Positions 21,519 to 34,381 of a DNA stretch of 64,000 bases are shown here, one piece after another. Under the pieces are notes generated by a model. The model was not told the DNA's origin and ran no database searches. It was given only the letters and a program-made list of their open reading frames with translations. Source of the DNA: an uncultured virus (IMG/VR IMGVR_UViG_2061766007_000883) (lineage: Duplodnaviria > Heunggongvirae > Uroviricota > Caudoviricetes); the IMG/VR virus record IMGVR_UViG_2061766007_000883, one strand, 5' to 3'. Position numbers and translations under genes: made by a program. Within the stretch, counting starts at the first letter, position 1. Each line of letters begins with the position of its first letter.

Positions 21519-22883
21519 ATGTTGTACAAGGATGCGCTCAAGCAGTTACAGGAGCAAATGCTACAGGAAAAGACTGCCGCAGCCATACCAGGTCTTCCTG
21601 ACAGACGAGATATGGGCGATTTGTCTATGCTCCACGAGGACGACATCGCCACGCTTATCCGCCAGCTCCACCGTGCAAGACGCGCAGGCGTGCACGAGGA
21701 CCTTCGGCTCGGAGGCCCTGGAGGGCTTCTGTCTTGGGCGGTTCCGAAACAGCTTCCCACAGATGACGCAAAGCGCCTGGCCATACGCCAGCCTGTGCAT
21801 GATTGGAGCTACAAGGACTTCCATGGACGGCTACGTCAAGGCTACGGCAAGGGCACTGTCGAGAAGATGGAGGAATCCCCTGTCGTCATCCTCAAGAACT
21901 CAGGTGACCACATCATGTTCACCAGAGGAGACATGCGGGACGCGCCCATTTACAATCTACGGAAGACAAAGGACGACAACTGGTTGCTGTTCATCTCACG
22001 GAAAGGGCAGCCTGATGTCGTTCGCATGTACCCGAAAGAGCACTTCAAGTCCGTGCCGATGGACAAGGTGCCTGCACTCATAGCGAGCGGCGCGGCGGTT
22101 ACGCGCAAGATAGACGGTGCAGGTGCGTTGCTGTATCTTGGCGACCATGGAGCGGAGGCCTACGGCATACGGACTAATTCAAAGGGCGAGAAGCCGTCCT
22201 ACACGGACGCCATCGGCGGTCTGCGGTCGTTGAACATCCCGAAGGACTTGCGCGGGACGCTGTTGCGTGCGGAAGTGTTCGGCCAGCGTGCGGGACAATC
22301 CATCGGACCGAACGAGCTTGGCGGCATCCTGAACGCCACGACACGCAATGCGGTGTACAAGAAGCGCGGAGACGGCATACGCATGTTGCTGGCCGCGCTG
22401 GCTGTGCATCGGAATGGCGTGGACGACTATGACCCGAAGGCCGTGGAGGACATTGTGCGCCGTTTGGGCGCGGCGAACGTCATTCCTGTGACGCGGTACA
22501 CTGGCAAGGACGCGCTGGAGGCCATCGAGCGCATGCGCAACGGTGACGACACGCTCACGAACGAAGGCGTCGTCATCCATCAACCGGGACAGCGGCCACT
22601 GAAGGCGAAGTTCAAGGAGGACGCCGATGTTGTTATCCGCGATGTTTTCAAGGCAGGCGTTGGACCTGGCGTTCGCCCTAGGGCTGGCGGCTTTTCTTAT
22701 TCTCTACCTGGGTCGGACAAGGTGATTGGACGTGTAGGCACGGGATTCGACCACGCCATGTTGGAGGACATGCTTGCCAATCCTGACAGGTACGTCGGCA
22801 GGACTGCCCGCATCCAGTCACAGCAGCAGTACCCTAGCGGAGCGTACCGTGCTCCGAGTTTCATAGCGTTGAAGGAGGATTAA
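21519..22883 (+). CDS. LigD-type 3'-phosphoesterase domain fused to ATP-dependent DNA ligase
   Basis: PE motifs 'QLHRARRAGVHEDLRL', 'SWAVPK', 'KRLAI', 'GYGKGTV'; ligase motifs 'RKIDG', 'LRAEVF', 'NEGVVI', 'KAKF', OB-fold 'GRVGTGF...YRAPSF'. Confidence 0.85.
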   Translation: MLYKDALKQLQEQMLQEKTAAAIPGLPDRRDMGDLSMLHEDDIATLIRQLHRARRAGVHEDLRLGGPGGLLSWAVPKQLPTDDAKRLAIRQPVHDWSYKDFHGRLRQGYGKGTVEKMEESPVVILKNSGDHIMFTRGDMRDAPIYNLRKTKDDNWLLFISRKGQPDVVRMYPKEHFKSVPMDKVPALIASGAAVTRKIDGAGALLYLGDHGAEAYGIRTNSKGEKPSYTDAIGGLRSLNIPKDLRGTLLRAEVFGQRAGQSIGPNELGGILNATTRNAVYKKRGDGIRMLLAALAVHRNGVDDYDPKAVEDIVRRLGAANVIPVTRYTGKDALEAIERMRNGDDTLTNEGVVIHQPGQRPLKAKFKEDADVVIRDVFKAGVGPGVRPRAGGFSYSLPGSDKVIGRVGTGFDHAMLEDMLANPDRYVGRTARIQSQQQYPSGAYRAPSFIALKED

Positions 22884-24517: not shown

Positions 24518-24660
24518 CATGCAAGCCATGGTACTTGCATACGCTCAAAAGCAAGCCAAATCCATGGCATAATAACTTGGATACGTAAGTTCATTCCGCC
24601 CGATAAGCACGCATGGTCAGCGTGACACGGGCTAAAGTCTGTGCAACAAGGAGGTCTAAA

Positions 24661-25655: not shown

Positions 25656-25696
25656 TGCTTAAAAATACGTGTGATTACGGCAGTATACCATGAAGG
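25656..25696 (+). promoter_or_regulatory. Conserved phage promoter motif, copy 1
   Basis: TGCTTAA-N14-A(C/T)GGCARTATAMCATGAMGG with identical spacing in four copies. Confidence 0.75.
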
Positions 25697-26356: not shown

Positions 26357-26425
26357 ACAAATGTCTGTTCTTCCGGCCTAGTCAGCCGAGTAATAGCCAA
26401 ACAACAACAACAACAAGGAGTAACT

Positions 26426-26716
26426 ATGTTTGGAGCACCGACAATTGAAGAAATCTGTAATCAACCAGTTTTCAATCCACATAATGTGGAATGGTTGCAA
26501 ACGGATTCTGTTCTTCACTTGAACAAGAAATATGGGCACCTTCCAGTATCGACGTTCTTGCTGAAGCTCAAACTGACGGGGCTGGACGTCAGCTGCTGGA
26601 ATAAGATGACATCTGTTCCTCAGATTCTTGCAAGCCAGATGGACAATCCGTACCAAGGTGCGGATGAGAAAATCCAGAAAGTCCTGGATTGGTTTGAGGT
26701 GCAAGCCTTGAACTAA
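26426..26716 (+). CDS. Hypothetical protein (single-gene cassette)
   Basis: AAGGAG RBS after a CAA-repeat leader; own promoter and terminator. Confidence 0.7.
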   Translation: MFGAPTIEEICNQPVFNPHNVEWLQTDSVLHLNKKYGHLPVSTFLLKLKLTGLDVSCWNKMTSVPQILASQMDNPYQGADEKIQKVLDWFEVQALN

Positions 26717-26724
26717 TCCAAGAG

Positions 26725-26760
26725 AAGAAGGCGTCAGGGGCAACCCTGGCGTCTTCTTTT
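26725..26760 (+). terminator. Intrinsic terminator
   Basis: AAGAAGGCGTCAGGG-GCAA-CCCTGGCGTCTTCTTTT (GNRA loop). Confidence 0.8.
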
Positions 26761-26785
26761 AGTGTCTAAAAGAGGCTGTGAAAAG

Positions 26786-26826
26786 TGCTTAAAAACACCT
26801 TGTTTTATGGCAATATAACATGACGG
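26786..26826 (+). promoter_or_regulatory. Conserved phage promoter motif, copy 3 (upstream of the non-coding RNA)
   Basis: TGCTTAAAAACACCTTGTTTTATGGCAATATAACATGACGG. Confidence 0.75.
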
Positions 26827-27660
26827 GATTAATCTCCTGTCTCAAACCTGGAATGGTGTCTGTATCTCCACTATTTCCAGTACCAAGGTCCAACCAGCCT
26901 TGGTCAGTTGCTACCGGGTGTTACGGCGCATACAGGCGCTAGTATGCATGGCAGGGGTGTCTTCACATGAAGGCGTCCTAATCGGAGGTTTCTTCTGCCA
27001 TGAACCGGGACCTTATAGGAAAAATGCGTGCAAGGACTGCAAGAGCCTACACGCGGCCTTTGGGTGGTTCCCAGAGGTAAACCCTGACAGAGGGCGACAG
27101 TGTTTGCAGGCACTGTCAACATGCGCGTGGTCATATTCCGCTGCGCGCATGGTATGCCCCAATGGATGGAATACATGCAGGCGCTTTGCGCCCGTCGCAG
27201 TCGGTCAAGCACCTAACCGCTGCGACGTAGTATGGGGTGCCGGGCGTGAGGACAAGTGTGCCGGAACGCTGACGCGGTACTGGCCGGAAACGGTAAAGGC
27301 CGCACTGCCCTGTTAGCGCTTCTTGGGAGGTAATAGAAGCGCAACCTCCGTATGCAAGCGTGCCTCAGGCATGCGGAGTAGAGATGCACGCAACCCCACA
27401 GATTCTCCGGGGAATAGAGAGAATCATCCCGCATGTGCGCGTGCCTCAGGCATGCGGGAGCAGAGAAGCACGCAACCCAGTTATAGGCTCTGGGGAATCA
27501 AAAGCCATCCAGACAGCGTCAAGCGGCAGCGCGACAAGTCTGGTAGGAGCATCGAGGTCTGCCGGCCACGATGCCCCGCTTCAATCCCGCATACGAGACT
27601 TCGGTCCGTATGCGGTTTACATATATCAAAAGACGAACAGTATTGCACTGTTCTCTTTTA
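26820..27660 (+). ncRNA. Large (~800 nt) highly structured, pseudoknot-rich non-coding RNA of unknown class
   Basis: Promoter at the 5' end; no RBS-led ORF with phage codon bias; many long stems and loop-to-downstream pairings; cUUCGg-capped 3' hairpin (27587-27615); lies next to a tRNA. Confidence 0.65.
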
Positions 27661-27733
27661 GGTATAGTATGTGTGGACATGGATTTTCCTTGTTGCGTTC
27701 ATGTCCACAGCCGTCTGACCAACGGCATCCGAC

Positions 27734-27770
27734 AAGGGCTGCGTCTGGCGACAGACCAGCCCTTCTTTTT
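27734..27770 (+). terminator. Intrinsic terminator
   Basis: AAGGGCTG...CAGCCCTT stem plus CTTTTT. Confidence 0.65.
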
Positions 27771-27777
27771 ATTTTCT

Positions 27778-27851
27778 GCCCGGATAATTCAGTTGGAAAG
27801 AATGTCGACCCCCTAAGTCGAACGTCGCGGGTTCGAGCCCCGCTCCGGGTA
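27778..27851 (+). tRNA. trnR: tRNA-Arg (anticodon CCT), no encoded CCA
   Basis: Acceptor GCCCGGA/TCCGGGT, D arm ATTC/GAAT with GG and A20, anticodon stem TCGAC/GTCGA with loop CCCCTAA, T arm GCGGG-TTCGAGC-CCCGC, discriminator A. Confidence 0.9.
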
Positions 27852-27871
27852 CTATCAGGCTTTTCTTTTAC

Positions 27872-27912
27872 TGCTTAATTACAGCGGATATCATGGCAAT
27901 ATAACATGAAGG
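27872..27912 (+). promoter_or_regulatory. Conserved phage promoter motif, copy 4
   Basis: TGCTTAATTACAGCGGATATCATGGCAATATAACATGAAGG. Confidence 0.75.
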
Positions 27913-27973
27913 ATAATGTTTATTCTTCCGGCTAGGTCGGCCGTACGCAATGCCTAACAACAAGGAGACAACC

Positions 27974-28372
27974 ATGGCAAGTAAAAAGTACCATATCCCG
28001 CATGTCGGAAGCGTCTATCGTCCGTCCAAAAAACAGGCTATCTGTTTTGGTACCTACATCATCGACGGTGAAGAATGGACCGGCAATGTGTCCGTTCGTA
28101 TCGACACGCGTATCATGCGCAAGCAGGGCGTGTTCGAGGCGGCCCGCAGTGCGTTGGCGATTCGCATGCCCATGAAGGGCGACGCACTCGTAAACCTCGC
28201 CGAGGTCACATATGTGACGGACATGCCAGTCCGTTACTGGTTCACACGTCGTATGCGTAAAGCGGTGCGCATGCGCCGTAAGCATTGGACCAATCTTGAC
28301 GCGGACGACAAACAGCTAATCGCCAAAGGAGCTTCCATGGAAGCTACCGTTAGCCACTACGGTATTTACTAG
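27974..28372 (+). CDS. Hypothetical basic protein (single-gene cassette)
   Basis: AAGGAG RBS before ATG 27974; own promoter and terminator. Confidence 0.7.
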   Translation: MASKKYHIPHVGSVYRPSKKQAICFGTYIIDGEEWTGNVSVRIDTRIMRKQGVFEAARSALAIRMPMKGDALVNLAEVTYVTDMPVRYWFTRRMRKAVRMRRKHWTNLDADDKQLIAKGASMEATVSHYGIY

Positions 28373-28375
28373 GCG

Positions 28376-28415
28376 AAAAGAAAGGCGTGGGGCGAAAGCC
28401 CTGCGTCTTTCTTTT
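28376..28415 (+). terminator. Intrinsic terminator
   Basis: AAAAGAAAGGCGTGGGGC-GAAA-GCCCTGCGTCTTTCTTTT. Confidence 0.8.
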
Positions 28416-28496
28416 ACTGTGCAGTGGGTATCGTATCAGTTGTAGTAACGCCTGTGCTTACATAGAATGTAAGACACGCATCATGGTGTAAAGACA

Positions 28497-31400
28497 ATGA
28501 CCGAAAGCATAGAACCAACGGGTGTCGATACGAGCCCGGCGTCCAACGAGACGGTACAGCACTTGGCGCAACCTCCTGCCAAGCCCACGAAAAACGTGCA
28601 TGACTGGCTCCGCGACCTGCGGATGTCGGCCGATGTCAACCAGACGACAGTCGGCGTGGCGGCCGACAGGGTCACACCTGAGCTCATGCTGGCCACGGCC
28701 AACAAGCTGCTCGGCATAAGCCGCCGTCAGGTCGAGCCTGACCCGAAGGACTCCCTGCAGTTCCAGCGGGTGTACGGACCTAACGAATATTTTTCGGAAC
28801 ACATACTGCGTGACGCAGGAAGGCTTGGCCGCCAGCTTCTGTGGAAGGCCACCAACAAGGGAAACCTGGACTTCATGCAGACGGCTGCCTTGGACGGCCA
28901 TGTGTCGGACGTGTTCAATTCCAGCAGGCTGTCCAACATGATTGACGGAAGCTCGCCTTTGGAGACCGTGGACGCGGCGTTCAAGGTCACGCGCATCGGT
29001 GAAGGCGGTGTCGGCGACGTATCGTCGGCCCCTGATGAGATGCGACTTGTCCAGCCGTCGTTCCTCGGATATGTGGACAGTGTCCGCAGTCCGGAAAGCA
29101 TGAAGGTAGGATTGGACACATACCTCACCAAATACTGCATGAAGGGCTCCGACGGCAAGCTGTATCAGAAATTCATCAATGCGCATACAGGAAAGCCTGA
29201 ACTGGTGGACTCCGTGACGGCTGCCAAGTCCGTGGTCACGACGCCTGACATGATGAACGCCAAAACGAATTTCATCTATGCGCTTGGCGGGAAGACAGGC
29301 GTCCGTATCGTCCCCAAGAAGTCCGTGGACTACTATCTACCGAAAATGGACCAGGCCTTCTCCACGGCGGCCAACCTTGTCACCGGCTTGTCTGGTGTCA
29401 AGGAGATGCNNNNNNNNNNNNNNNNNNNNNNNNNGGCCACGCTGATGACCATCGGCAAGGACAACATGGTGTCCATCGACTATGCGAAGGACGTCAGCTC
29501 GGACAATTGGTCGCTGCCGGGCGCGGACAAGGAGGCCATGTCGAACTGCCGCCATCGCATCCGTGCCACGATTGCCAAATTTCCTCCCGGACGTGCATGG
29601 TTCAGGAAAATCGTTTTGTACTCAGGCCGTGCGCTGACCACGTCCAAAGACCACCGCTGGGCTGTGCTGCGTGACGACAAGATAGAACTGGTGGATGCTG
29701 TGAAGCTCAAGCCAGGCGACAAGATTTTCCGCCGGATGTTCAACGATTTCGCAGGTCGCCGTACGTTCGTGCTGGGCGTGCAGGTTGACGCCGCTCTTGC
29801 GGCTTTGCTTGGCTATATGGCGCGTGGCGGATCGCTTCCCGCGAAGGACACCGTTCGCGTTCCCTACGAACAGAAGCACAGGACGGACATAGACAAGGCC
29901 TTGTGCCGCCTGCATCTACGCACGGTGACGTATCATGGTTCCAAGACGGAGCCTGTGCTGTCCATACACGACAAGCAGTTCGCGGACTGGTTTGCCGCCA
30001 ACATGGGGCAGACGCCCGATACGCGGCGCATACCGTCTGAAATCCTCAGCGCCAAGTCCGTCATCGTGGCGTCGTTCCTTGATGCGTACACGGCGGACAC
30101 CACCAAGATAGCGCAGGATGCGCAGGACTACACATGGATTCTCAGCATCGGCAACTTTGTCGAACGTGACGGAATCGCGTTCCTGCTTTCCCGCATTGGC
30201 ACGGACACGTACTATAGGGACGCCTACCAGGGCAACGGCGAGACACAGCTGGCGCTAAAGTTGACGGAATGTACGGCCATGCACGGTTCGCTCCTGCTGG
30301 ACGCTGTCAAGTCCAATCTGCCCGTGCAGGGCGCGTCCATCATGATTGATGTGGACGCGGACGACAACCTGTACGCGTCCGCTAGCGGTATCATCACTCA
30401 CAACTCCAAGTATCCGCTGCAGGCCATCTCCATCGAGGGACGCGAAGCACCGTACGTCCGCAATATCGACAGCGAGACTGGCAAGGATATCCATTCGGCT
30501 ATCGGCAAGTATTTAGGAGCACGATTTGCGGACAAGCCTGGCGTGGTCACCGCCGTCCGTCAAAATCGCATCGACGTCCAGTACGACGATGGCACGAAAG
30601 GCCAGATTGCCCTGTATAACAACTTCCCGATGAACGCCAAGGGCTATATCACGAACACGCCGCGTGTGAAGGCGGGCGACCGTTTCGGCAAAGGCGGTCT
30701 GCTGGCATCGTCCAACTACACGGACGACAAGGGCGTCATGGCAACGGGAACAAACTTGCGTGTTGGCTGGCTGTCATGGAAGGGCGGCACATACGAGGAT
30801 GCTGTCGTTCTGTCCGAATCCGCCGCCCGCAAGCTGACTGGCTCCGTCATGTATTCCGCAGACCTAGACCTTGACAAGACCGTTACGCTCGGCAAGCGCA
30901 ACTACCGTTCGTGGAAGCCGGGCGAGTACACCAAGGAACAGCTGTCCGTGTTGAATGACGACGGCATTGTCATGCCTGGCACGATTCTGCACAAGGGTGA
31001 CCCGATGGTGCTTGCCGTCCGTACGACCGAGCCTTCTCCAGGCACGATGGGCAAGCGCATCCTGACGGACGTGTCCCAGGTGTGGGAGCACGACAATCCC
31101 GGCAAGGTGACGGACGTTGTCCGCACGCGTGGCGGAGTCAAAGTGCTCGCCACGGTGACTACGCCTGTGGAAGTCGGTGACAAGGTGTCAGGCTTGTACG
31201 GCAATAAGGGCGTCTGCAGTATGATACTGCCGGACGACCAGATGCCCGTGGACAAGGACGGCAAGCCGCTGGACATGATTCTGTCACCTCTTGGCCTGAT
31301 TTCCAGGACGAATCCGACGCAGCTCATGGAGACGCTGCTTGGCAAGATTGCGCACAAGACGGGCAAGACGGAACTTATCGACGCGTTCCCTGAGAACGAC

Positions 31401-34381
31401 ATGCACCAGTACGTCATCGACAAGCTGAAGCAGAACAAGCTGAACGCGGAGGATGATTTCTTCGACCCTGAGACTGGACGCAAAATACAGGGCGTCGTCA
31501 ACGGATACTCCTACATACACAGATTGAAGCACTTGGCGGAGTCCAAGGAATCCGCGCGTGGAACGGACGCCTACTCAACGGACGAGACTCCGGGAGGATC
31601 TGGTTACGCAGGATGCTTCCCGGCCGCACAGAACATCATGACAGCCCACGGTGAACGCTCCATAGCCACGCTATGCGAAAAGCACATACATGAGAATGTG
31701 CTTACATGGAACGGCAAGGAGTGGTGCTACAGACCCATAACGGACTGGTTCACATACAGAGCCAGAACCGAGGACATCCTGGATATATTCACGGAATACA
31801 ACACAAGCGACACTGGCAATAAACTTGTAAGGCACACCACATGTCTGCATCCGACGAAAAACCACAAAATGTACATGGCGGACATGACGGTGAAGCTGGC
31901 AGGCGAGCTCAAGATAGGCGACCTATTGGCAAGTATGGGACCGGTGGCGACGGCCGACCAGAAGCGCGTGCTGCTTGGCACGCTCATGGGCGATTCGTGC
32001 TTCTCCACCGACGGCTCGCTGCAATGTGAGCATTCGTACAAGCAAGTGGCTTGGTGCGACTACAAGCAACGTGCGTTAAGTGGATTAGGAGCCACGCTGT
32101 GCACAGGTGTGTACAAAGTGCACGACAGCATCATCAACGGACGTGTAGTCAGGGGCACAAAGGCCAGACTGATACGCGTGCCACGTTCGTACATGCTGGA
32201 CGAGCTACGTGCTAGCATAGTTGTCAATGGAAAACGCATGCTCACGCAAGATACTTTGGACAAATTAGGTGAGCTAGGCTTCTGCGTGTGGTATCTGGAT
32301 GACGGGTCGATGCACAACCACATTAAAGAGAAAGGCAAACCTTCGCCGGAAGCCGTGTTGTCCACATGCGGTTTCACCCCGGATGAAGTTGCTTTGTTCA
32401 GGCCCTGGGTGGAAAAACTGTTGGGCGAACCGGACAGCACAACCATAGCGCCGCAGATGACGAACGACGGCGAACGTCATAACGTGCGTTTCAACAGGCA
32501 GGCATCCTGGCGTATAGCTGAAATGGTCGCCCGCAACATCCCGTGGCAGTTTATTCCACCCTCAAAACACTGGTTGCGCGCATGGTGCAAGGAGCAACAG
32601 AGCAAGACTCCTGCACTGCAGCATGACTTCATATCCCGACTGGGCATAACACCTGTACGCATAGTCGAAATACGGCCATACAAGCACGATAAGCCCGGAG
32701 TCACCGAGATACCTGTGTACGACTTCACAGTCGAAGACACGCACAAGTACACGCTTGCTGGATACGTAATTGTCTCAAATTCAAAGCGTTTCGGCACCCT
32801 GGAGCAGAGTGCGATGGCTGGGCATGCTGCGTTCGACAATTTGCTGGACAACAAGCTCATCCGTGGACAGTCCAACGCAGACTTCTGGCGGTCTATCCGC
32901 ACAGGCGGAATCCCGACGATTCCGGGTGAACCCTTGGTGCAGAAGAAGTTCTTCGCCCATCTGCAGGGTTCAGGTGTCAATGTCCGCAAGACTCAGAAGG
33001 GCATCAGCGTGTTCGCCTTGTCGAACTCAGATGTTGAAAAGTTGGCAGGCCCGCGTGAACTGAAGTCGCGTGACACCTACGAGGCCCGTACGTTCCGGCC
33101 CATCGACGGCGGGCTGTTCGGGCAGGACGTGTTCGGTCAGAATGGCGACCAGTGGGGATACATCCNNNNNNNNNNNNNNNNNNNNNNNNNNNNNNNNNNN
33201 NNNNNNNNNNNNNNNNNNNNNNNNNNNNNNNNNNNNNNNNNNNNNNNNNNNNNNNNNNNNNNNNNNNNNNNNNNCTGAAGCAGGCGTTGTCGAAGATAGA
33301 CCTCGACATGGAAGCCAAACGCGCCATGCAGGAGTTCAAGGACGCGCCTGCGTCCAAGCGCGACAATGCGCTCAAGCGGTACGTGGATGTCGAGAACATG
33401 CGCAGGGCAGGGCTCAACCCGTCAGAATACATGCTCGACCGCATTCCTGTCCTTCCCGCGCAGTTCCGCCCGGTCACGTCCCACAACGGCCTGACGATGG
33501 TGGCGGACGCCAACTATCTGTATGCACAGCTGCTGGACGCAAGGGACGACCTGAGGGACTCGAAAGATTTGCCAGTGGAATATCAGGACAAGGCGCGTGC
33601 CAACCTGTACAAGAAGTGGCAGGAGCTCACAGGGCTGTACGACCCGGAGGATGTCAAGCTAAGGAACAAGAACGTCGGCGGTCTGCTTAAGTGGGCGCTC
33701 GGCACGTCACCGAAGTTCTCGGCGTTCCAGCGCAAGGTTCTAGGTGGTTCCGTCGACACGGTCGGACGCGGCGCCATCGTGCCGAACTCCAAACTTACCA
33801 TGGACCAGATTGGCATTCCGATTGGAATGGCGTTCGACATCATGGCTCCGTTCGTGGAGCGCGGGCTTGTCAAGCGCGGGTATACGCCCGTGGATGCCAT
33901 GAAGATGGTAAAGCAGCGCGACAAGCAGGCGGCAGACGTCCTGAACGAAGTCATCAAGACACATCCCGTGGAGATGAACCGTGCTCCGACGTTGCACAAG
34001 TTCAACATCATGGCGTTCGAGCCAGTTCTTGTCCAAGGGCACGCAATCCAGGTTCATCCGTCTGTCTGCCCAGGTTTCAATGCGGACTTTGACGGTGATA
34101 CGGTTAACGTTCACGTACCAGTGTCGGACAATGCGCGGAAGGAGGCTATGGAAAGGATGCGTCCGTCGCGCAACCTCATCGCCCCCAGCGACCGTAAAAT
34201 CATGTACAAGCCTGAGAAGGAATACATGCAGGGCCTGTATTTCGCCACACGGCTAGGACAGCCCAAGAATGGACGCGTACAGATATTCAGGACCATGGAC
34301 GAGGCTCAGGAAGCATACGAGCACGATATTATCGACGTGGATACACCGATACGGATACTTGAGCTAGAACAGAAACAATAA
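28497..34381 (+). CDS. rpoB: RNA polymerase beta (C-terminal part) fused to beta' (N-terminal/catalytic part), with two inteins; joined across N-gaps
   Basis: RpoB motifs 'EMRLVQPSFLGYVDSVRSPE', 'GGTYEDAVVLSE', 'GDKVSGLYGNKGV', 'HRLKHL', 'KRFGTLE'; RpoC motifs 'RTFRPIDGGLF', 'IPVLPAQFRP', 'NRAPTLH', catalytic 'FNADFDGD'. Confidence 0.92.
29410..30404 (+). mobile_element. Intein 1 in RNAP beta (degenerate LAGLIDADG domain); N-terminus hidden in the N-gap
   Basis: Block B 'LTTSKDHRW', C-terminal 'LYASASGIITHN/S'; interrupts the equivalent of RpoB 'RALMG.NMQRQAVP'. Confidence 0.8.
31614..32780 (+). mobile_element. Intein 2 in RNAP beta with LAGLIDADG homing endonuclease (389 aa)
   Basis: Starts 'CFPAAQNIMT', block B 'HPTKNHKM', EN motifs 'LLGTLMGDS' and 'VWYLDDGS', ends 'VYDFTVEDTHKY...IVSN/S'. 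Confidence 0.92.

Follow-up and report, generated by a model that had tools for sequence, protein, structure and literature searches.

A predicted run of five H-type pseudoknots in a putative non-coding RNA gene of an uncultured bovine-gut phage

To our knowledge, runs of stacked pseudoknots are rare, being known mainly from transfer-messenger RNA (tmRNA) and from the 3' ends of plant viruses, and their purpose is debated. The window considered here, a 64,000-nucleotide stretch of an uncultured virus of the Caudoviricetes (IMG/VR record IMGVR_UViG_2061766007_000883), contains at positions 27308-27506, on the + strand, a chain of five consecutive units, each able to form an H-type pseudoknot, within a putative non-coding RNA (ncRNA) gene. 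In tmRNA, according to PMC1168896, the tRNA-like and mRNA-like parts are joined through a variable number of pseudoknots, and in tobacco mosaic virus (TMV), within its upstream pseudoknot domain (UPD), a stalk of consecutive pseudoknots stands 5' of the tRNA-like structure in the tobamovirus 3' untranslated region (PMC4683447). The ROOL and GOLLD RNAs, as PMC12286853 describes them, come from phages or prophages, exceed 500 nucleotides (nt), at 0.5-0.8 kb or larger, contain numerous stems and pseudoknots, frequently lie close to tRNA islands and have no assigned function; the first sighting of ROOL was in rumen data, and it has a variable internal part. Both assemble into homo-oligomeric, RNA-only cages, and the Rfam library includes models of both. 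Type III antitoxins are recognised, in the sections of PMC3401426 used here, as tandem repeats (ToxI, 36 nt x 5.5) followed by a terminator and then a toxin gene, the repeats being detectable with Tandem Repeats Finder, and extracts of PMC3594212 describe the pseudo-ToxI of phage TE, whose pseudoknot repeats neutralise a host toxin through copy-number expansion.

ROOL and GOLLD are closest in kind to the window RNA, sharing its setting and size: it too is phage-encoded, about 0.8 kb long and densely folded, with a tRNA gene 160 nt downstream and a centre that varies between strains of a bovine-gut phage. It differs in that it matches no Rfam model, even at E<=10, and in that theirs are described as multi-stem structures (P1-P19 and P1-P27; PMC12286853) whereas its own is a linear H-type run. 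In local architecture the closest system is the TMV domain, with the differences that this belongs to the genome end of a eukaryotic RNA virus and the chain to a gene of a DNA phage, and that the tRNA of the window is a real gene, 270 nt away past three terminators and dispensable in a variant. The knots of the TMV domain stack into a rod. With PK2-PK4 of tmRNA, whose pseudoknot units are about 30-50 nt, the chain has in common consecutive H-type pseudoknots, short linkers and a number that varies between lineages, but the window RNA is without a tRNA-like domain, a tag reading frame or any ARAGORN or Rfam match. That it is a degenerate or novel tmRNA-like RNA is therefore highly improbable and already largely refuted: a chain of five pseudoknots does recall the variable run typical of tmRNA (PMC1168896), but ARAGORN returned no call at its default, 90% or 80% thresholds and only spurious permuted calls at 70%, no Rfam tmRNA family was matched at E<=10, and neither T-arm or acceptor pairing nor an alanine-ending tag frame was found.

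A first-pass annotation of the window had listed ten helices in five units, and all ten are present where it placed them, as seen both by direct reading and by re-extraction with a script. Unit A1 (27308-27342, +) reads CCC tgtta GCGCTTCT t GGG aggtaat AGAAGCGC, so that CCC/GGG is crossed by GCGCTTCT/AGAAGCGC. Unit B1 (27346-27391, +) reads CTCCGTATGC aa GCGTGC ctcag GCATGCGGAG tagagat GCACGC, a 10 base pair (bp) helix crossed by GCGTGC/GCACGC. It is followed by A2 (27394-27425, +), CCCC aca GATTCTC c GGGG aataga GAGAATC, in which CCCC/GGGG is crossed by GATTCTC/GAGAATC; by B2 (27427-27473, +), TCCCGCATGT gc GCGTGC ctcag GCATGCGGGA gcagagaa GCACGC, a copy of B1; and by A3 (27476-27506, +), CCCAG ttata GGCT CTGGG gaatcaaa AGCC. 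The linkers are, in order along the chain, AAC, AA, A and AA, in agreement with the 1-3 nt first reported.

All five units have the H-type topology, the 5' strand of the second helix lying inside the loop of the first. The stems are of 3-10 and 4-8 bp; loop 1 (2-5 nt) spans the 4-8 bp helix, loop 2 is of 0-5 nt and loop 3 (6-8 nt) spans the 3-10 bp helix, and such loop lengths suit H-type geometry by Pleij's rules. Furthermore, A is enriched in loop 3 on the + strand only (19 of 36 positions, against 26% across the region; p 6e-4), as is usual for H-type knots, where this loop crosses the minor groove of stem 1. The estimated advantage of the knot over the best nested fold, calculated with Dirks-Pierce-type penalties that do not come from a tool, is 1.5 kcal/mol for A1, 7.1 for B1, 2.6 for A2, 6.1 for B2 and 1.7 for A3; A1 is thus the weakest unit, as had been supposed.

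It is clear from shuffles, from a two-layer fold and from a scan of the whole window that the interleaved complementarity is genuine and far beyond chance, which bears out the core of the annotation. A scanner for H-type units (stems of 3-10 and 4-8 bp, loops of 1-6, 0-6 and 3-9 nt, linkers of 0-3 nt; G-C pairs scoring 3, A-U 2 and G-U 1) gave the chain at 27308 a score of 168, and no other locus of the 64 kb exceeded 121 on the + strand or 122 on the - strand. The scanner is post hoc, since its ranges were chosen to include the units already listed. Among 1000 dinucleotide shuffles of 27250-27560 none contained a five-unit chain, 2 a four-unit chain and 21 a three-unit chain; the best three-unit chain at the locus scores 113, and no shuffle scored above 77. 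Under looser rules other five-unit chains appear elsewhere in the window (one at 21823 on the - strand), so that the argument is one of chain quality and not of chain length alone. Further, B2-A3 copies B1-A2, and the independent evidence is therefore nearer to three units than to five.

The two-layer test is independent of the ranges of the scanner: the sequence is folded with a pair span of <=50, the paired bases are frozen and the remainder is folded again. For 27300-27510 the second layer reaches -31.0 kcal/mol with 30 crossing pairs, against -1.3±1.5 kcal/mol and 3.4±3.3 pairs in shuffles, none of 300 attaining the observed value. The crossing helix was recovered in all five units, although that of B2 only in part. 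Slid along all 64 kb in 912 windows per strand, the test gave, as its next value at an unrelated place, -8.5 on the + strand and -8.6 on the - strand. The nested-only fold of the chain region is unremarkable (z -1.24 on the + strand, -1.19 on the -), as is expected if half of the pairing is crossing.

The chain also contains internal copies. A repeat search found B1 and B2 to match at a spacing of 81-82 (29 nt at 86% and 22 nt at 91%), and CTC[CT]GGGGAAT is common to A2 and A3 at a spacing of 83, from which the array is seen to consist of A1 and a tandemly duplicated B-A unit of ~82 nt. Stem 1 differs between B1 and B2 at six positions, all of them transitions, and every pair is kept, through two-sided changes (C-G to U-A, U-A to C-G) and one-sided ones (U-G to C-G, C-G to U-G). 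In trials with six randomly placed changes, all ten pairs survived in 0.15%, 1.0% and 8.6% of cases when the share of transitions was 1/3, 2/3 and 1 respectively, and the pairing-preserving changes observed modestly strengthen the case for a helix about which there was little doubt. The B crossing helix is identical in the two copies, which amounts to conservation and no covariation; together with loop 2 it carries no change at 17 positions, against 8 changes at 22 positions in stem 1 and loop 1 (Fisher p 0.006). Among the A units the hairpin stems are wholly different (GCGCTTCT, GATTCTC and GGCT), the crossing C-run/G-run is conserved and the topology is the same. The compensatory changes that had been claimed between copies are thus present in B stem 1 and missing from the B crossing helix. 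In each unit only one helix is backed by change with pairing, the crossing helix being backed by conservation, geometry and statistics; since there is no Rfam match and no homologue was reached, it is on these that the crossing helices rest. The further suggestion of a structure under selection is a reasonable one, favoured by the statistics, the loop geometry, the internal copies and the conservation, and weakened by the absence of crossing-helix covariation. The annotation's proposals of a rigid scaffold, a sponge or a nuclease-resistant block are conjectures.

The setting of the chain is non-coding. About 1 kb without a credible open reading frame (ORF) separates the gene at 26426-26716 from the tRNA-Arg(CCT) gene, and the long frames that cross this stretch start with TTG or GTG, one of them running through three terminator-like hairpins and the tRNA. 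Natural variants carry 1-nt indels at 27019/27020, 27085, 27089 and 27091 as well as an 82-nt deletion, which speaks against a coding function. The upstream gene ends in an intrinsic terminator (26727..26760, +; a 13-bp hairpin with a GCAA loop and a T run) recognised in the sequence, its Rfam matches being weak and terminator-like only. It is followed by a promoter-like motif, GTGCTTAAAAA...TGGCAATATAACATG, at 26785..26822 (+; core 26808-26822, with TATAAC at 26814-26819). In a motif scan TGGCARTATAACATG gave 11 matches at <=3 mismatches where 1.8 were expected; the four best (0-2 mismatches), at 25678, 26338, 26808 and 27894, are all on the + strand, and that at 24565 has 3 mismatches. The consensus is TGGCA[AG]TATA[AC]CATG with GCTTAAAAA in front, and an alignment of the five upstream regions places a terminator directly before each site and a unit directly after it.

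Because the copy at 26808 opens the non-coding stretch, the RNA would start near 26826. Its 3' end is placed at a putative terminator, T1 (27587..27618, +; CCGCATACG...CGTATGCGG, a 9-bp hairpin followed by TTT), which is absent from the list given by a consensus scan. From these signals, 26826..27618 on the + strand has the appearance of a gene, about 793 nt long, for an RNA that encodes no protein and would be separately transcribed, and the combination of a non-coding setting with a promoter-like motif and terminators on one strand lends support to the interpretation given in the annotation. The local fold of 26842-27620 is well beyond that of shuffles (z -5.6, 0/100), and the + strand is preferred for 26842-27300 (-179.0 against -145.2 kcal/mol, G-U making up 25 of 146 pairs). 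No Rfam family was matched at E<=1 on 7 kb, and cmscan of 26720-27780 at E<=10 returned three weak terminator-like matches only.

We tentatively favour, while stopping short of calling it probable, the explanation that this is a non-coding RNA transcribed on its own, in which the five-knot rod serves as a stable strut or spacer of a trans-acting RNA resembling ROOL and GOLLD. The 3'-central 200 nt of the RNA would adopt five H-type pseudoknots, with the two helices of a unit forming together; the chain would have been built as A1 plus the duplicated B-A unit. Stacking of the knots may then give a stiff rod, about 63 base pairs long and, if coaxial, measuring roughly 17 nm. This rod could act as a stable strut or spacer domain, resistant to exonucleases, within a phage RNA that works in trans and is of the general ROOL/GOLLD kind, and the number of units could be altered by recombination between the repeats with viability kept. 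If this is true, a five-unit run in a stand-alone phage RNA gene would be a compact natural system in which to study such rods, accessible because forms with three and with five units are both in circulation. The few large, ornate phage RNAs found beside tRNA genes (ROOL, GOLLD), whose function is a standing question, would also gain a new member.

Natural variants were sought in public data; 14 runs from seven studies cover part of 26400-28400, nearly all of them labelled bovine gut and none recorded as RNA. Contigs from four of the runs, belonging to four studies (X3, X5, X8 and X9), were compared with the window. The RNA is about 99% identical in the variants, against a difference of 4-9% in the flanking genes. 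In X3, 26842-27385 and 27468-27617 differ at 6 of 694 positions plus 2 one-base indels and the flanks at 42 of 670 (p 2e-8); in X8 the RNA differs at 4 of 302 positions and the flanks at 29 of 563 (p 0.005). The conservation of the RNA is thus 4-7 times that of the flanking genes in these two samples. One contig each in X3 and X5 (two studies; shorter side 150 and 255 nt) lacks the 82 nt at 27386..27467 (+), the joint from 27385 to 27468 falling within an 11-nt repeat, GCACGCAACCC, and leaving A1-B1-A3. This deleted form is otherwise identical to the window; the deletion is therefore recent, and a three-unit lineage is in circulation. Neither X3 nor X5 has a substitution inside any unit, so that these variants are uninformative on pairing. 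Outside the chain, the variant change 27565 G>A converts a U-G to a U-A pair in the hairpin at 27549-27574.

A different picture is seen in X8 and X9: similarity to the window falls below 80% over the 118-213 nt upstream of 27587 and is 95-98% on both sides, and 30 letters of the divergent centre look homologous though much changed. On our reading of these sequences the centre of the RNA, including the chain, may be its most changeable part, or it may have been swapped as a cassette. Such variation is also what might be seen if the knots were a multivalent decoy or sponge, binding a host protein (such as a ribonuclease, a type III toxin, ribosomal protein S1 or some other RNA-binding protein) that is titrated early in infection, with unit number and sequence shifting in an arms race. 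We consider this unlikely. In its favour, the phage pseudo-ToxI provides a precedent for copy-number expansion (as described in the extracts of PMC3594212), and unit number varies here between five and three. The B crossing helix and loop 2 are invariant as stem 1 drifts, as for a sequence-specific contact, and the promoter motif is common to a cluster of small genes without assigned function.

Tandem pseudoknot units of tens of nt, with a copy number that changes in phages, are a likeness both to the type III antitoxins (ToxI, CptI, TenpI) and to pseudo-ToxI (on the parts of PMC3401426 and PMC3594212 used here). Membership of that class, which had been suggested for the chain, is not borne out, since the chain is without near-identical tandem repeats or a terminator with a toxin gene next to it. 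At a minimum score of 30, Tandem Repeats Finder returned no rows for 26500-28500. Repetition is limited to the B parts, at 86-91% identity, with A1, A2 and A3 differing throughout; no ToxN/AbiQ/CptN/TenpN-type toxin gene or known partner was found nearby with Pfam and PADLOC, the features downstream being terminators, the tRNA-Arg gene and an ORF of 132-140 amino acids (aa). Given the copy-number precedent, a decoy is conceivable as a mode of action and not as membership of the class. Also against a decoy, no Rfam family is matched, the three-unit lineage persists in two studies, and the knots are GC-rich and by the estimated energies stable by themselves; ToxI folds in complex with its protein. 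A more elaborate form, which we regard as improbable, would make the array a modular anti-defence decoy, resembling pseudo-ToxI but built as a mixed cassette, each knot being a mimic of an RNA bound by a different ribonuclease or toxin of the host; rumen phages would shuffle, duplicate and delete its units under the arms race, and this would explain why the centre differs so sharply between strains that are otherwise 95-98% identical.

Homologues were sought in several collections. A blastn search with 26700-27900 found no match in 50,697 phage records. The exact B 19-mer had no match in viral contigs and 10 in metagenome contigs, none with a similar context; a looser B pattern had none in genome contigs and none in viral contigs, and a 22-mer from a 5' hairpin had none in two contig collections. 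Two short motifs taken from the ends of the divergent variants gave, respectively, no match and one chance match in a high-GC contig, and were set aside. Relatives of the RNA polymerase beta protein encoded nearby (72 proteins; 21 IMG/VR loci at 30-59% identity) have no upstream genes in common with the window and no nucleotide similarity to it, and no tRNA was found in the 17 of those 21 loci that were scanned. When the RNA was compared by blastn with 5 whole relative records the best E was 0.13, and searches for single-protein loci found no related locus. No description of such an element was found in open-access papers or bioRxiv.

One complete relative of 176 kb (G002, IMGVR_UViG_3300045988_174965) has, in the 1.5 kb that separate two divergent genes, a GC-rich cluster of long nested hairpins at 112170-112700 on the - strand (L045 12170-12700), with a local fold z of -4.7; no crossing helices and no Rfam family above threshold were found in it. 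A second ncRNA or a region resembling an origin could lie here. The scanner had proposed a chain there (112170-112420, -, score 140), which was rejected as nested hairpins only, with a second-layer z of 0.1. That so structured a cluster gives this value shows that the two-layer test does not merely reward structure.

Several observations weigh against the strut or spacer explanation. No covariation stands behind any crossing helix, those of B being identical in the copies and those of A a conserved C-run/G-run, and some variant changes go against pairing in flanking hairpins: 27145 G>A puts a C·A into the 12-bp stem, and a small helix is disrupted by 27531 G>A. The contigs branch at 26826-26841 and at 27586-27587, and the high conservation of the RNA could reflect recent cassette exchange in place of purifying selection. 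The searches described above found no divergent homologue, and no comparable chain is present in three complete relatives whose RNA polymerase beta is 55-56% identical. Finally, the knot form is only marginally favoured for the A units, and inside each B unit a competing hairpin, GCGUGCC/GGCAUGC, is possible and appears in the global minimum free energy fold.

This competing hairpin is one of the points in favour of an alternative in which the knots are not simultaneous, the complementarity reflecting either mutually exclusive hairpins (a co-transcriptional path or switch) or palindromes at the level of DNA (protein sites, an origin or a packaging signal). Only 3 of the 78 pairs of the chain are G-U and nearly all are Watson-Crick, so that nearly the same helices are open to the reverse strand or to duplex DNA; the - strand five-unit chain scores 145 against 168, and the hairpin cluster of the relative lies in a divergent intergenic gap. 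That cluster is, however, nested only. In the window, the loop lengths fit simultaneous H-type folding in five of five units and the estimated energies favour the knots, the A-richness of loop 3 is confined to the + strand, the surrounding RNA favours that strand by 34 kcal/mol, and the promoter and terminator signals are as at the neighbouring units. On balance we think this alternative unlikely, and retain the stacked-knot strut as the favoured reading.

The remaining alternative concerns the tRNA-Arg(CCT) gene (27778..27852, +), which lies 160 nt past T1. The chain could be part of a cis-acting leader of the tRNA-Arg transcript that stabilises or times tRNA production, or permits read-through of the three terminators. 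The tRNA has no promoter motif of its own, the nearest upstream copy being that at 26808, and a plant virus offers the parallel of a pseudoknot domain upstream of a tRNA-like end (the TMV UPD; PMC4683447). Three terminator-like hairpins nevertheless stand between the chain and the tRNA: beyond T1 there are T2 (27635-27659, in the consensus scan), a hairpin at 27672-27709 and T3 (27734-27775), together occupying 27635..27775 on the + strand. Further, in a contig of X9 the sequence passes from 27775 to 27845 with 5 letters in place of the tRNA, so that the tRNA-Arg is an accessory insertion in this phage population; this variant without the tRNA retains 27587-27775, and the gene that follows is preceded by a promoter motif of its own, at 27894. 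A leader role is accordingly quite improbable. We thus rank a structural or nuclease-resistant role first, then the decoy, then alternative folds or DNA palindromes, then the tRNA leader and last a tmRNA-like role.

Elsewhere in the RNA, a 5' domain (26842..27303, +) is rich in hairpins, for example at 26882-26904, 27056-27078, 27096-27117, 27120-27151 and 27193-27227. No significant crossing helices were found in it by the two-layer fold, crossing being confined to 27300-27510, and upstream pseudoknot candidates (such as 27193-27240) were dropped because this fold did not recover them. A 6-bp long-range crossing helix is possible between an unpaired stretch and a hairpin loop of this domain (CTGTAT/ATACAG, 26860-26865 with 26930-26935). 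On the 3' side of the chain are two hairpins (27509..27574, +), CCAGAC/GTCTGG at 27509-27543 and GCATCG/CGATGC at 27549-27574. The T1 stem (CCGCATACG/CGTATGCGG, 27587-27615) resembles stem 1 of the B unit (CCCGCATGT/GCATGCGGG, 27427-27459), and stems of the GCATGC/GTATGC type are repeated across the RNA (26928, 27120, 27152); the hairpins of T1, B stem 1 and the GCATGC/GTATGC type may have a common origin.

The window as a whole belongs to a large phage from bovine-gut samples with its own multisubunit RNA polymerase genes (Pfam, PHROGs); its distant relatives, which are phages or contigs from phages, measure about 165-190 kb. The non-coding stretch lies just upstream of the polymerase genes, amid small promoter-to-terminator units. 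An RNA polymerase beta-like gene with an inserted LAGLIDADG intein (residues ~1116-1426) occupies 28497-33278 (+; Pfam, PHROGs), with more polymerase pieces downstream. Its relatives either lack inteins or have them at different sites, and many combine beta and beta' in one fused protein of 1560-1860 aa. Between 24565 and 27908 (+), five consecutive small promoter-to-terminator units carry the common motif GCTTAAAAA...TGGCA[AG]TATA[AC]CATGAAGG, and the units starting upstream of 26426 and 27975 also have a conserved 5' leader in common. The proteins of this cluster match no Pfam or PHROG family, and the cluster looks like one of early or host-takeover genes; the ORF of 132-140 aa downstream of the tRNA-Arg is likewise without a Pfam, PHROG or PADLOC match. 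Further upstream, 21519-22883 (+) encodes a protein of 454 aa with a LigD 3'-phosphoesterase domain (Pfam), a relative of which is found downstream of the polymerase gene in another locus (L018).

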